25,518 nucleotides of DNA from the NCBI GenBank assembly GCA_947474875.1, contig CANJKY010000001.1, forward strand, positions 1-25,518. Direction: 5' to 3'. This DNA comes from Gemmataceae bacterium. Its GTDB lineage: Bacteria > Planctomycetota > Planctomycetia > Gemmatales > Gemmataceae. This document shows, one piece after another, positions 3,046 through 25,518 of the stretch. How positions within the stretch are numbered: position 1 is the first letter of the stretch; each line of letters starts with the position of its first letter. Under the pieces are notes generated by a model, which was not told where the DNA came from, ran no database searches, and saw nothing but the letters and a program-made list of their open reading frames with translations. Position numbers and translations under genes: made by a program.

Positions 3046-3145
3046 GAAACGTGGCCGGGGGTGAAGGGCGTGTGAAGAACTGTACCCGGCCGGGGGCGGG
3101 GGTGGGAAGGGCGGTCGCGGGAATGAGTGTGCCTACCACTCTCAG

Positions 3146-4675
3146 TCAGTTGGCGAATCCGATCACCGCCCGCACCGCCTTCCGCCACGTGGTCAGCTTG
3201 CGGTCGCGGTCGGCGGCGGGCATCGCCGGCTCGAACCGCTGCCCCGCCGCCAGCAGCGACCGCAGCTTCGCCTCGTCCGTCAGCCCGGCTCCGACGCCGG
3301 CCAGGAACGCCGCCCCCAGTGCCGTCGATTCACTCTGGGCGGCGCGGACCACCGGCCGGCCGAGCACGTCCGCCTGGAACTGCAGGAACCAGTCGTTGCG
3401 GGCCATGCCGCCGTCCACGCGGAGCGGGGAGTCTTGTAGCCGCGACCCAGCGGGGAGCGCGTTCGGCCCCGACGCGCTCCCCGCTGGGTCGCGGCTACTA
3501 GATGCCTCCACCAAATCCGCCACCTGATACGCCACACCTTCCAGCGCCGCCCGCGCCAGGTCCGCGGCGGTCGTGGCCCTCGTCAGGCCGAAGATCGCTC
3601 CACGGGCCTCCGGCACCCAGTGCGGGGCGCCCAGCCCGACGAACCCGGGCACGAACAGTACCGGCTCGGCCGGGTTCGACTCCTTCGCCAGCCGCTCGGA
3701 CTCGGCCGCCGAGGTGAACAGGTGCAGGCCGTCGCGGAGCCACTGTACGGCGGCGCCGGCCACGAACACCGCCCCTTCCAGGGCGTACTGCGGTTTGGTG
3801 TCGGTCATCGCCGCCACGGTGGTGAGTAGCCGGTTGGCGGACGACACCGGGGTGTCACCGGTGTGCAGCAGGTAGAACGCGCCGGTGCCGTAGGTGCATT
3901 TCCCCTCGCCGGGGGCGAAGCACCCCTGGCCGTACAGCGCCGCCTGCTGGTCTCCGGCGATACCGCGGATGGGGATGCCATCAGGCAGGAAGTCCAGCCC
4001 CTTCGTGACGCCGAACGCGGCGGCGGACGGCTTCACCTCCGGCAGCAGCGACCGCGGCACGCCGAAATAGCGGAGGAGTTCATCGTCCCATTGCAGGGTG
4101 TGGATGTTGAACAGCAGGGTGCGGCTGGCGTTGGTCGTGTCGGTGGCGTGGCTCGCCCCGCCGGTCAGTCGCCAGACGAGGAACGAGTCGATCGTTCCGG
4201 CCGCCACTTCGCCCCGCTCGGCCGCCACCTTCACCGCCGGATTTGCTTCGAGCAGCCACCGCAGCTTCGTTCCGCTGAAGTACGGGTCCAGCACCAAGCC
4301 GGTCTTCGGCGTGAGCCACGGCTGGTCGGCCGCCCGCTCGCGGCAGAAGTCGGTCGTCCGCCGGTCCTGCCAGACGATCGCCCGGCCGACGGGCCGGCCG
4401 GTGGTGCGGCCCCACACCACGATGGTTTCGCGCTGGTTGGTGATGCCGACGGCGGCGACATCACTTCCCGATTTGCCGGCGTTCGCCAGCGCCTCGCGGA
4501 CGGTGCGGGCGACCGAGTACCAGATGTCTTCCGGTTCGTGTTCGACCCACCCGTCCTTCGGGTAGTGCTGCTCGATCTCCTGCTGGGCCGAGCCGAGGAC
4601 GGCGAACGTGCCGGGGTCGAACACGACCGCCCGGGACGAGGTGGTGCCCTGGTCGATGGCGAGGAGGACGGTCAT
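3146..4675 (-). CDS. glpK: Glycerol kinase (FGGY family) carrying an in-frame palindromic insertion
   Basis: AIDQGTTSSR, GITNQRET, WQDRR, DPYFSGTK, TDTTNASRT, GDQQAAL, KCTYGTG and RVDGG motifs. True start is ATG 4675 (MTVLL), not the 5938 start in the ORF track. Confidence 0.97.
   Translation of the reverse strand: MTVLLAIDQGTTSSRAVVFDPGTFAVLGSAQQEIEQHYPKDGWVEHEPEDIWYSVARTVREALANAGKSGSDVAAVGITNQRETIVVWGRTTGRPVGRAIVWQDRRTTDFCRERAADQPWLTPKTGLVLDPYFSGTKLRWLLEANPAVKVAAERGEVAAGTIDSFLVWRLTGGASHATDTTNASRTLLFNIHTLQWDDELLRYFGVPRSLLPEVKPSAAAFGVTKGLDFLPDGIPIRGIAGDQQAALYGQGCFAPGEGKCTYGTGAFYLLHTGDTPVSSANRLLTTVAAMTDTKPQYALEGAVFVAGAAVQWLRDGLHLFTSAAESERLAKESNPAEPVLFVPGFVGLGAPHWVPEARGAIFGLTRATTAADLARAALEGVAYQVADLVEASSSRDPAGSASGPNALPAGSRLQDSPLRVDGGMARNDWFLQFQADVLGRPVVRAAQSESTALGAAFLAGVGAGLTDEAKLRSLLAAGQRFEPAMPAADRDRKLTTWRKAVRAVIGFAN
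3436..3498. repeat. GTAG-tagged REPIN-like palindrome (family A), inside glpK
   Basis: 27-nt arm GTAGCCGCGACCCAGCGGGGAGCGCGT (3436-3462), 9-nt loop, exact reverse complement (3472-3498). Total 63 nt. Sister copies at 20980 and 25474. Confidence 0.93.
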
Positions 4676-7485: not shown

Positions 7486-7556
7486 GCCGCTCTTCGCCGC
7501 GACCTCCGGGAGCGGTTGGGCCTTGACCGCTCCCGGAGGTCGCGGCGAAGAGCGGC
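7486..7556. repeat. REPIN-like perfect inverted repeat (family D), possibly also a terminator
   Basis: 31-nt arm GCCGCTCTTCGCCGCGACCTCCGGGAGCGGT (7486-7516), 9-nt loop, exact reverse complement (7526-7556). Lies 1 nt after the stop codon of the upstream minus-strand gene. Confidence 0.88.
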
Positions 7557-16783: not shown

Positions 16784-16971
16784 ACCTCACCCCCCGGCCC
16801 CCTCTCCAAAGTGGAGAGGGGGTGTTCAAGCGAGGAACGTGGTGCCCGTCGTCGCCGCGAGCTTGCGAGCGGAGCCAGCTACCCCGCTCGCAGACTCGCG
16901 GCGGCGACACAGATGCGCATCCCGTTTGAACACCCCCTCTCCGGCTCGGAGAGGGGGCCGGGGGGTGAGGT
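16784..16971. repeat. Composite element: two inverted 46-nt repeats (family B) enclosing a second palindrome
   Basis: 16784-16829 ACCTCACCCCCCGGCCCCCTCTCC-AAAGT-GGAGAGGGGGTGTTCAA matches the reverse complement of 16926-16971 except in the 5-nt loop (42/46). Confidence 0.88.
16848..16908. repeat. REPIN-like imperfect inverted repeat (family C) nested inside family B
   Basis: Arm GTCGTCGCCGCGAGCTTGCGAGCGG (16848-16872) versus the reverse complement of 16884-16908: 22/25 matches, 11-nt spacer. Confidence 0.8.
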
Positions 16972-18801: not shown

Positions 18802-20985
18802 ATGCTCCGGGAAGAGCAGATCGAGATCCGCCGGCAGCGGGCGAAGGCCGGGCGGTACGTCATCAGGAACCTGGGCAAGAACCGGGTGTTCTCCGACTAC
18901 GCCGTGTCGAACCCGCAGACCGGCGGGGCGTACACGGTGGCCGTCCGCGGGTTCGACACCGGCGACAACACCTGCACCTGCCCGGACTTCAAGGCGAACA
19001 CCCTCGGCACCTGCAAGCACATCGAGGCGGTGCTGGAGGAGCTGAAGGACGACAACCCGGCGCACGTGCGGAAGAAGAAGGCGGCGGTGGTGCGGCCGGA
19101 GGTGTACCTGCACTACGGCGAGGCCCTGCAACTCGGCATCCACCTGCCGCCGCGGCACACCGACAAGCTCGCGGCAGTGGCGAAGAAGTACTTCGACGAC
19201 AAGGGGCTGTGGTCCGGCCGCGGGCGGTTCGAGGACCTGATCGCGGACGTGGAGAAGGTGCCGGAGGAGGTGACGGTCCGGTCGGACGCGCTCGACTTCC
19301 TGGACCGCGAGCTGGAACGCATCGACATGCGGCGGCGGGAGGACGAGTGGCTGGCGCAACTCGACGCCGGCACCCTCGACCTGAACCTGCTGAGCGTCCC
19401 GCTGTACGACTACCAGACGCGGGGTGCGCTGTTCCTGGCCTGCCGCGGCCGGAGCATCTTGGGCGACGACATGGGGCTGGGCAAAACGATTCAGACGCTC
19501 GCCGCCATCGAGTTGCTGGCCCGCGAGCGGGGGATCAGCCGGGTGCTGGTGGTGGCCCCGGCGAGCGTGAAATACCAGTGGGAAGGGGAGATCCGGAAGT
19601 TCACCAAACGGGCGGTGCAGGTGATCGAGGGCGGGCCGGACGACCGCCAGGACCAGTACGCCGCCGCCACCTTCTACCGGCTGGTGAACTACCAGCAGGT
19701 GGTGCGGGACCGCGACGCCATCAACGCCTGGAACCCGGACCTGATCGTGCTGGACGAGGCCCAGCGGATCAAGAACTGGGAGTCGAAGACCAGCCGGGCG
19801 GTGAAGAAGCTGGTCAGCCGGTACGCCATCGTGCTCACCGGCACCCCGCTGGAGAACAAGCTGGAGGAGCTGTACAGCATCGTCCAGTTCGTGGACGAGC
19901 GGCGGTTCGGCCCGGCCTTCCAGTTCCTGCACGACCACCGCGTGCTGGACGACAAGGGCAACCTGACCGGCTACCGCAACCTGGACACCATCCGCGAGCG
20001 GCTGGAGCCGATCTTCCTCCGCCGCACCCGCGGCGAGGTGCTGACCGAACTGCCGGCCCGCACCGACAACACGGTGTTCGTCGAGCTGAGCGAGGAGCAG
20101 CGGAGGCCCTACGAGGAACAGCGGACCGCCCTCGCCCGCCTGCTCACCAAAAACTTCCTCACCGACCTGGACCGCAAGCGGATCCTGGCCTGCCTGTCGA
20201 ACCTGCGGCTGATCTGCGACAGCACGTTCCTGTTCGACAAAGCCACCCACCACTCGCCCAAGCTGGACGAACTGGCCGACCTGCTGCCCGAACTGCTGTC
20301 CGGTGGGCCGCACAAGCTGGTGGTGTTCAGCCAGTGGGAGACAATGCTCAACCTGGCCGCGTCCACGCTGGAGCGGAAGGGGGTGGGATACGCTCTGCTG
20401 CACGGCGGGCTGAGCGGCAAGGACCGCAAGGCCGCGCTGGAGCGGTTCAAGACCGACCCGAAGTGCCGGGTGTTCCTGAGCACCGACGCCGGCGGGGTGG
20501 GGCTGAACCTGCAGATGGCCGACACGGTGGTGAACCTGGAACTGCCGTGGAACCCGGCAGTGCTGGAGCAGCGGATCGCCCGCGTCCACCGGCTCGGACA
20601 GGAGCGGCCGGTGCGGGTGATTAACCTGGTCACCCGCGGGACGATCGAGGAGCAGGTGCTGCGGACGCTGGAGCGGAAGCAGGGGCTGTTCGCCGGGGTG
20701 TTCGACGGGGAGGAGGACGAGATCGCGTTCGCGGCGGTGAACCCCGGCGGGTTTCTGGACGCGGTGCGGGAGATGATCGGCGAGAAGCGGACCGAGCCGG
20801 TGGTGGAAGCGCCGCCCCCCCTGCCGCCGGCGGTGCCGGCGCTCGACGCCGGCCCGACCCTGCTGCCCACCGCCGTGCAGATGCTCGAATCGCTGGCCGA
20901 GTTGCTGGCGAACCCGGACGCGCGGAAGCGGCTGACGGCCGAGCAGCGGCGACGGATCGCTGCGGCGGTCGAGAAGTTGTCGTAG
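18802..20985 (+). CDS. SNF2-family helicase/ATPase with an N-terminal SWIM zinc finger
   Basis: CTCPDF...CKH (SWIM), GDDMGLGKT, DEAQRIKN, LTGTPLEN, STDAGGVGLNLQ, WNPAVLEQRIARVHR. Confidence 0.93.
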   Translation: MLREEQIEIRRQRAKAGRYVIRNLGKNRVFSDYAVSNPQTGGAYTVAVRGFDTGDNTCTCPDFKANTLGTCKHIEAVLEELKDDNPAHVRKKKAAVVRPEVYLHYGEALQLGIHLPPRHTDKLAAVAKKYFDDKGLWSGRGRFEDLIADVEKVPEEVTVRSDALDFLDRELERIDMRRREDEWLAQLDAGTLDLNLLSVPLYDYQTRGALFLACRGRSILGDDMGLGKTIQTLAAIELLARERGISRVLVVAPASVKYQWEGEIRKFTKRAVQVIEGGPDDRQDQYAAATFYRLVNYQQVVRDRDAINAWNPDLIVLDEAQRIKNWESKTSRAVKKLVSRYAIVLTGTPLENKLEELYSIVQFVDERRFGPAFQFLHDHRVLDDKGNLTGYRNLDTIRERLEPIFLRRTRGEVLTELPARTDNTVFVELSEEQRRPYEEQRTALARLLTKNFLTDLDRKRILACLSNLRLICDSTFLFDKATHHSPKLDELADLLPELLSGGPHKLVVFSQWETMLNLAASTLERKGVGYALLHGGLSGKDRKAALERFKTDPKCRVFLSTDAGGVGLNLQMADTVVNLELPWNPAVLEQRIARVHRLGQERPVRVINLVTRGTIEEQVLRTLERKQGLFAGVFDGEEDEIAFAAVNPGGFLDAVREMIGEKRTEPVVEAPPPLPPAVPALDAGPTLLPTAVQMLESLAELLANPDARKRLTAEQRRRIAAAVEKLS

Positions 20986-21045
20986 CCGCGACCCAGCGGG
21001 GAGCGCGCCGGATGGAACGCGCTCCCCGCTGGGTCGCGGCTACGA
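20980..21045. repeat. Family A REPIN-like palindrome between convergent genes
   Basis: 28-bp perfect stem TCGTAGCCGCGACCCAGCGGGGAGCGCG with a 10-nt loop. It contains the helicase TAG stop at 20983-20985. Confidence 0.93.
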
Positions 21046-22038: not shown

Positions 22039-22089
22039 GGCGGGGTCCGGGTAGGATGGGGCCGAGGAATTGTACCGCAAGGTGTAGCC

Positions 22090-25473: not shown

Positions 25474-25518
25474 GTAGCCGCGACCCAACGGGGAGCGCGT
25501 TGGAACTGAACGCGCTCC
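25474..25518. repeat. Family A REPIN-like palindrome, truncated by the window edge
   Basis: GTAGCCGCGACCCAACGGGGAGCGCGTT (one substitution relative to the other copies), loop GGAACTG, and the right arm beginning AACGCGCTCC. Confidence 0.9.

Follow-up and report, generated by a model that had tools for sequence, protein, structure and literature searches.

How does a central metabolic enzyme come to carry a perfect DNA palindrome within its reading frame, and is that palindrome a recent intruder or an old tenant? The question arises in a stretch of 25,518 nucleotides (nt) from a Gemmataceae bacterium of the Planctomycetota (GenBank assembly GCA_947474875.1, contig CANJKY010000001.1; the whole stretch is hereafter called the window), where the glycerol kinase gene glpK contains a 63-nt palindrome without losing its frame. 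We consider it likely, taking the explanation as a whole, that the palindrome is a doublet of repetitive extragenic palindromic (REP) sequences depending on a REP-associated tyrosine transposase (RAYT), that it occupies an old REP site re-seeded by a young subfamily, and that it is carried as a tolerated passenger. The glpK loop would have held REP DNA before the species split, first as an older arm variant (the G-variant), and after the separation of the source genome (G000) from its sister genome G017 (synonymous divergence, dS, ~0.36) the G000 copy would have been overwritten or re-seeded by a younger C-variant doublet, either through gene conversion from other copies or through transposase-mediated insertion at the pre-existing REP. 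Most likely, the insert would have been kept because its length and frame are harmless, and not as an adaptation.

A REP doublet in frame in glycerol kinase

The palindrome at positions 3436-3498 is composed of a 27-nt arm, a 9-nt loop and the exact reverse complement of the arm, and the arm match had a count of 0 in 100 dinucleotide shuffles. Folded as RNA in its mRNA context it reaches -82 kcal/mol (z = -9.2), and as a DNA 63-mer -42.8 kcal/mol (z = -11); ribosomes translating glpK would have to pass through this very stable hairpin. The minus-strand glpK open reading frame (ORF) runs through the palindrome with neither a stop codon nor a frameshift, reading ...VEASSSRDPAGSASGPNALPAGSRLQDSPLRVDGG (also written out as ...ADLVEASSSRDPAGSASGPNALPAGSRLQDSPLRVDGG), and gains about 21 residues directly before the RVDGG strand, and the tryptic peptide predicted to span the insert is DPAGSASGPNALPAGSR. 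Removing the 63 nt in silico yields EAS-K-DSPLRVDGG. One of the three frames of the element starts with TAG and two are open, and the glpK copy shares its open frame (SRDP...GSRL) with a further coding copy in fpg. An initial annotation of the window had described a 63-nt palindrome with a 27-bp stem in frame before RVDGG, the same deletion product, two further copies in the window and otherwise intact GlpK motifs, and our analysis bears out each of these points (the two copies lie at 20982-21043 and 25474-25518, and the motifs are treated below). Because the element is palindromic, its antisense, within a plus-strand ORF at 3051-3527, encodes a near-identical peptide (SRDPAGSAFGPDALPAGSRL), which produces a spurious self-match when the proteins of the genome are searched.

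The source genome is a fragmented metagenome-assembled genome (MAG) of 4.35 Mb in 741 contigs, 67% complete and with 69% GC, in which nhmmer found 63 loci of the repeat, here called family A. At least 26 of the 63 are inverted doublets, 56-65 nt long, in which the arms are conserved and the spacers unrelated; spacer length varied from 2 to 13 nt in an alignment of 26 doublets, and paired changes at the arm centre are found in many copies. Family-A arms start with GTAG, or with TTAG in one subgroup, and were present in all five congeners tested. A single arm by itself forms an imperfect hairpin that leaves the GTAGC tail unpaired (-7.3 kcal/mol; z = -1.7, which is modest), and the C-to-G and G-to-C difference between the subfamilies leaves the inner 3-bp stem paired. 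Family A thus combines an unpaired GTAG-type tag followed by a stem-loop with dispersed, mainly extragenic copies often arranged as inverted doublets with variable spacers, as expected of REPs and of REP doublets forming hairpins (REPINs). It is also mobile, in that G000 has empty or different sites where G017 has its copies L077, L080, L084 and L086. No direct target-site duplication was found at the glpK copy, where the flanks TCTT and TAGA are inverted and not direct, and comparisons of filled with empty sites gave no clean duplication and no defined target; assignment to the miniature inverted-repeat transposable elements, for which a target-site duplication was sought, was rejected. It is strongly supported that the 63-nt palindrome is a non-autonomous, GTAG-tagged, REPIN-like REP doublet belonging to a genus-wide Gemmataceae family.

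An old coding site with a young occupant

A REP arm occupies the same spot of glpK in at least eight 90%-identity protein clusters of orthologues, including those of the congeners G017, G014 and G013, and the SREPTASA of these orthologues aligns with SRDPAGSA of the window GlpK. Since the orthologues carry the arm at the same place, the glpK REP site is old. All the arm-bearing GlpKs fall into one clade of the maximum-likelihood tree (support 100/100). The sister G017, whose GlpK is 94% identical to that of the window outside the loop and 91% over the full alignment, has one G-variant arm with a different structured element behind it; in G014, G013 and L068 a lone G-variant arm is present (peptide VSREPTASA); and G018, G002 and G011 have short loops without an arm, which read GDDGRSAA in G018 and G002. 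What had been proposed initially, namely a REP/REPIN-type element lying in frame in an intact housekeeping gene and adding a peptide loop, stands in this light, but the accompanying claim of a single insertion into an empty site (TCTAAAGA) creating a new loop does not, as orthologues already carry an arm. A loop peptide shared by orthologues without the palindrome, which had been named initially as an argument against the claim, was in part encountered, given the eight-plus clusters whose arm encodes SREPTASA; however, the REP origin is left standing, because that peptide is itself encoded by a REP arm.

In G017, the element behind the arm is about 55 nt long, with an outer stem GGGTGGCC/GGCCACCC around two small hairpins (L002). 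The composite of arm and ~55-nt element recurs at L084:400-530 and L086:500-590 of the same genome and thus represents a family of nested elements.

The occupants of the site differ in arm type. Relatives carry the G-variant (GAGCC..GGCGAG) in glpK, and the window copy is a C-variant (GACCC..GGGGAG). C-variant arms number 64 in G000 and 33 in G017, next to 4 and 13 G-variant arms, respectively, and there are 0 in G014, G013 and G018, which hold 8, 14 and 35 G-variant arms. Because they are confined to G000 and G017, the C-variant arms represent a young subfamily of that lineage. The G000 arm differs from the old arm at three positions, made up of the subfamily-diagnostic pair and one common family polymorphism, and arm 2 is its perfect complement.

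A second gene tells the same story. The count of coding insertions, which the initial annotation had proposed as a check, was made for G000 with a spanning-ORF test and codon-position GC (GC3), and gave one full in-frame copy each in glpK and fpg/mutM, together with one possible half copy. The fpg doublet (C305:4830-4889, or L033:531-590; 60 nt) lies in the coding sequence (CDS) C305:4637-5509 of formamidopyrimidine-DNA glycosylase, between RRGKWIIV and LLVHLGM, and is read as SLVSRDPTGSEKTPALPVGSRLT; the product with the insert passes the TIGR00577 model. At the same position G018 and G014 have a single G-variant arm where G000 has the C-variant doublet. G002 retains a decayed arm, none is recognizable in G017, and the loop is short and plain in nine other congeners. 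These data are best read as a conversion or re-seeding of the old REP, at both coding sites, by the expanding subfamily once G000 and G017 had split. The possible half copy is a 42-nt in-frame match to one arm (PVSRDPKGSAW) at C395:2383-2424. It falls near the N-terminus of an ORF of 793 aa, which by eye resembles planctomycete DUF1549/DUF1553 proteins, and it may be either a half copy or native sequence.

The G000 doublet could alternatively be an ancestral one, inherited vertically, of which the other species lost one arm and G000 kept both, the arms drifting by point mutation and being kept complementary by hairpin-templated repair. REP singlets are indeed regarded as decayed REPINs, three arm substitutions are about the number expected at dS 0.36, and the paired changes at the arm centre in many family copies would suit such repair. 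Nevertheless, the three changes convert the G-variant exactly to the C-subfamily consensus with no others, and likewise in fpg; moreover, the C-subfamily is confined to G000 and G017, and the glpK arm of the sister G017 is still a G-variant. We consequently regard retention as improbable.

A permissive loop and the probable turnover of its occupants

Among 106 Gemmataceae GlpKs, all insertions of at least 5 aa fall in this one loop, and the stretch between the anchors AYQV and VDGGM ranges from 23 to 79 aa. It is strongly supported that the doublet sits in a single insertion-tolerant loop, between the helix ending at ~388 and RVDGG. Palindromes of other families have entered the same loop elsewhere in the Gemmataceae: the glpK at L066:301-1929 holds a ~130-nt perfect hairpin and that at L067:285-1937 nested palindromes, both read in frame as 40-50 extra residues, and at the protein level P0036, P0072 and P0086 have long loops with the same peptide signatures. 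In the tree, each of these five long-loop GlpKs stands beside relatives with a plain loop, which suggests that the insertions arose in separate events.

These events could be taken to favour a single recent REPIN insertion into an empty glpK site in G000, with the likeness to SREPTASA arising from an independent hit on a hot spot. The five palindrome-type inserts (two checked in DNA) among plain-loop relatives fit this possibility, as does the recent mobility evident from family copies present in only one of G000 and G017; in addition, removal of the 63 nt leaves an open frame and a short loop, EASKDSP, similar in length to the GDDGRSAA of G018 and G002. However, the G000 arm is collinear with the arms of G017, G014, G013 and L068 in one well-supported clade, and at least three independent hits on the same few codons would be needed, together with the same coincidence in fpg. 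An empty-site insertion is accordingly an unlikely account.

Turnover at persistent positions is also seen outside genes. On the syntenic G017 contig C60 (L054, L055), palindromes of other families stand opposite window positions 7486-7556, 20982-21043 and 25474-25518, the site opposite 16784-16971 is near-empty, and G017 has an extra doublet at the site of window positions 22085-22089. Intergenic palindrome positions persist at dS ~0.36, and their occupants (other families, nested elements or nothing) turn over. As glpK and fpg show the same switch and intergenic sites also change family between the sister species, it is quite possible, and we propose it tentatively, that older REP singlets are replaced where they stand by the young REPIN subfamily, even in coding loops, either because the transposase-mobilized doublet homes to an existing REP or through biased gene conversion. 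A colonized loop would then serve as a landing pad over long periods, its peptide being rewritten from time to time. No further example of an old singlet replaced by a young doublet was found at intergenic sites among the G017 G-variant sites examined, which face decayed, empty or other-family sites in G000.

Integrity of the gene and of the assembly

Of the 63 family-A loci, 17 are found no more than 80 nt from the end of a contig, and an assembly error therefore had to be ruled out. Both gene-to-arm junctions are present on Logan contigs from four metagenomes of four studies (freshwater, mixed culture, lake and bioreactor), for instance X3 record 18, which spans 3297-3493, and X4 record 26, which comes from a diverged strain and spans 3435-3793. 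The empty-site joint of the glpK flanks was absent from the Logan contigs of the four metagenomes. The same clustering at contig ends means that the family-A repeat is a major cause of contig breaks in G000, and probably in its relatives.

The gene is under purifying selection. Over 475 codons outside the loop, comparison with G017 as the nearest species gives a ratio of nonsynonymous to synonymous divergence (dN/dS) of 0.10, and all 10 of the 10 glpK differences of the palindrome-bearing X4 strain are synonymous. The product matches the GlpK equivalog model TIGR01311 with 626 bits (cut-off 590) as well as FGGY_N and FGGY_C, shares 53% identity with the solved 4e1j, and keeps every one of the more than 100 invariant columns in an alignment of 19 orthologues (L001 included), among which are DQGTT, R77/E78, D237, GTG 258-260 and DGG 416-418. 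In the AlphaFold2 model, a calculation that had been proposed at the outset for the loop, the protein has a predicted local distance difference test score (pLDDT) of 87 and template modelling (TM) scores of 0.88-0.92 to solved GlpK structures (4e1j, 2dpn), and the insert, at pLDDT 41-53, is a coil that links helix 365-388 to the RVDGG strand. It is strongly supported that about 21 disorder-prone residues are translated in one of the two open frames and that the kinase is left working.

An assembly artefact and a decaying pseudogene tolerating junk were among the outcomes that had been named as counting against the original claim. The former could be suspected from a MAG in 741 contigs with so many repeat loci at contig ends, but the junctions recur in four independent metagenomes without any empty-site contig; the latter is opposed by the intact frame, the low dN/dS, the wholly synonymous strain differences and an equivalog score above the cut-off. 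Either possibility is extremely improbable.

A candidate transposase

Family A probably depends on a RAYT, for which the sister genome G017 offers a candidate that surfaced only with the NF047646 model. The 198-aa RAYT-like ORF at C217:117-710 has HxH and YxxxNP motifs. C-variant arms flank it at 2-79 and 709-862, and it ends on the TAG within the GTAG next to it (L110:708-710). G000 itself encodes two RAYT genes, at C492:2832-3251 (L032; NF047646, 89 bits) and, truncated, at C486:17-304 (L031). Both are flanked by other palindrome families, with units containing GGCACAGGCTT..AAGCCTGTGCC and GGCACAC..GTGTGCC, and the genome thus hosts several REP-RAYT systems. The ten best PF01797 loci, from G017, G018 and G013, were also considered as the family-A RAYT and rejected, being IS200-like or flanked by other palindromes.

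Weighing re-seeding against function

Several observations weigh against the re-seeding of an old site by a RAYT-dependent doublet. Orthologues differ by 2-4 codons in the left junction of the glpK insert, and the comparison of sites revealed no signature of a target that would distinguish replacement from retention. The G017 RAYT-like ORF scores 54.9 bits against NF047646, below the 80-bit cut-off, and no orthologue of it was found in the G000 assembly, although the latter is uninformative at 67% completeness. Furthermore, as none of the RNA runs contained more than 0.10 of the sampled words, we infer translation through the hairpin from purifying selection only. Finally, the old arm is strongly conserved at the DNA level, which could mean that it has a function.

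This last point leads to the possibility that the insert or its arm was co-opted: a REP-binding protein might recognize it, the peptide loop might itself be functional, or the structure of the mRNA or DNA might tune glpK expression through pausing, processing of the mRNA or its protection. In four species at dS 0.5-0.7, where only 47.5% of third positions are unchanged, not one position varies in the 23-nt arm core, which ties with the active-site motif as the longest invariant run in glpK; the arms are also unchanged in the strain with 10 glpK differences. Gene conversion from the many genomic copies would explain this conservation equally well, however, and the loop has been lost or swapped for unrelated sequence in the close relatives P0008, P0007, P0020 and G018/G002. 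The peptide is, besides, predicted to be disordered, and the presence of REPs in unrelated proteins speaks against a protein-specific role (PMC3733652). Co-option is thus improbable, and a re-seeded, tolerated passenger is retained as the explanation of the glpK insert.

The locus would then illustrate, in a natural and well-controlled case as judged from sequence, how selfish palindromic DNA can become part of the protein chain of a central metabolic enzyme, and the comparative data date the glpK site and identify the insertion-tolerant loop. If the switch from singlet to doublet generalizes, REPINs would choose existing REPs as targets, which would account for REP positions that persist as their sequences turn over. 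For annotation, family A accounts for many contig breaks in these MAGs.

Features of the window

The coordinates are collected in Table 1. The second family-A doublet sits between the convergent genes of an SNF2 helicase (ORF 18802-20985) and a trypsin-like peptidase, and the helicase stop codon is the TAG of the GTAG tag at 20982-20985. Extension of the palindrome into the flanks, as seen around the glpK copy, is common among family copies in the form of TT..AA or GG..CC.

Table 1. Positions of glpK, of the REP doublet within it and of the other family-A copies in the window
Feature	Position	Strand	Remarks
glpK CDS, 509 aa + stop	3146..4675	-	ATG 4675-4673, TGA 3148-3146; window protein P0002
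REP doublet (REPIN-like), family A, C-variant, in frame in glpK	3436..3498	.	~residues 389-410 of P0001
Arm 1: outer GTAG tag, then small imperfect stem-loop	3436..3462	+	0 mismatches
Spacer (loop), 9 nt, variable between family copies	3463..3471	.	alignment of 26 doublets
Arm 2, exact reverse complement of arm 1	3472..3498	-	
Extended inverted repeat, 31-nt arms, one mismatch	3432..3502	.	flanks TCTT/TAGA give three extra pairs
Second family-A doublet, between convergent genes	20982..21043	.	GTAG holds SNF2 helicase stop
Third family-A copy, ended by contig end	25474..25518	.	arm 1, spacer, start of arm 2

Comparison with known systems

Among the closest precedents is the description of GTAG and CGTC REPs in frame in genes, whose dimers encode 20-30 aa and which turn up preferentially in genes for DNA repair (Di Nocera, De Gregorio & Rocco 2013, BMC Genomics 14:522, PMC3733652). 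That study also reported REP families in the Planctomycetes-Verrucomicrobia-Chlamydiae (PVC) superphylum, including Planctomycetes and Verrucomicrobia, and RAYT genes flanked by repeats. Family A resembles these GTAG REPs in its GTAG-tagged short stem-loop, in head-to-head dimers that form a longer hairpin, and in copies that are mostly extragenic and near gene 3′ ends, with a minority in frame in known genes; the copy in fpg also recalls the DNA-repair bias. It differs in family sequence and in its host, an uncultured Gemmataceae genus. The novelty that the initial annotation attached to the glpK insert was therefore set too high, in-frame GTAG REP dimers having been published in 2013, PVC genomes included. 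What is new here is a dated, repeatedly re-occupied coding site and the switch from old singlet to young doublet in two genes: beyond the published cases, the coding site is shown to be old, and a young-subfamily doublet would have taken the place of one arm of the old variant.

REPINs are described as lying almost exclusively in extragenic space (Bertels & Rainey 2011, PMC3116915; bioRxiv 10.1101/2021.07.10.451892). Family A shares with the REPIN-RAYT system the two inverted REPs with a variable spacer, the tens of copies, vertical persistence in the genus and turnover of the master sequence, as well as a putative single-copy-type tyrosine transposase flanked by its own REPs, here only in the sister genome G017. 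Unlike REPINs, which measure ~100 nt, its doublets are 56-65 nt long, and two of its copies are predicted to be translated.

The classic case of in-frame palindromes is that of the Rickettsia palindromic elements (RPEs), which are, as far as the account of Ogata et al. 2000 in a later review goes (PMC10969869), mobile palindromic repeats lying in frame in unrelated housekeeping genes. Going by that account, the likeness is one of behaviour only, in that family A also adds peptide segments compatible with the protein fold. RPEs are described there as ~100-150 bp long and as forming Rickettsia-specific families, and no homology is claimed for the 63-nt element; nearly half of the RPE copies are given as intragenic, compared with ~3% in family A.

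REPs have also been recognized as targets of insertion sequences (PMC3733652; ISPpu9, PMC8450116). In our case, the incomer would itself be a REP doublet and the site a coding loop, through a mechanism that is putative. Common to both are palindromes that serve as landing sites, with orthologous sites holding different families and one element nested in another.

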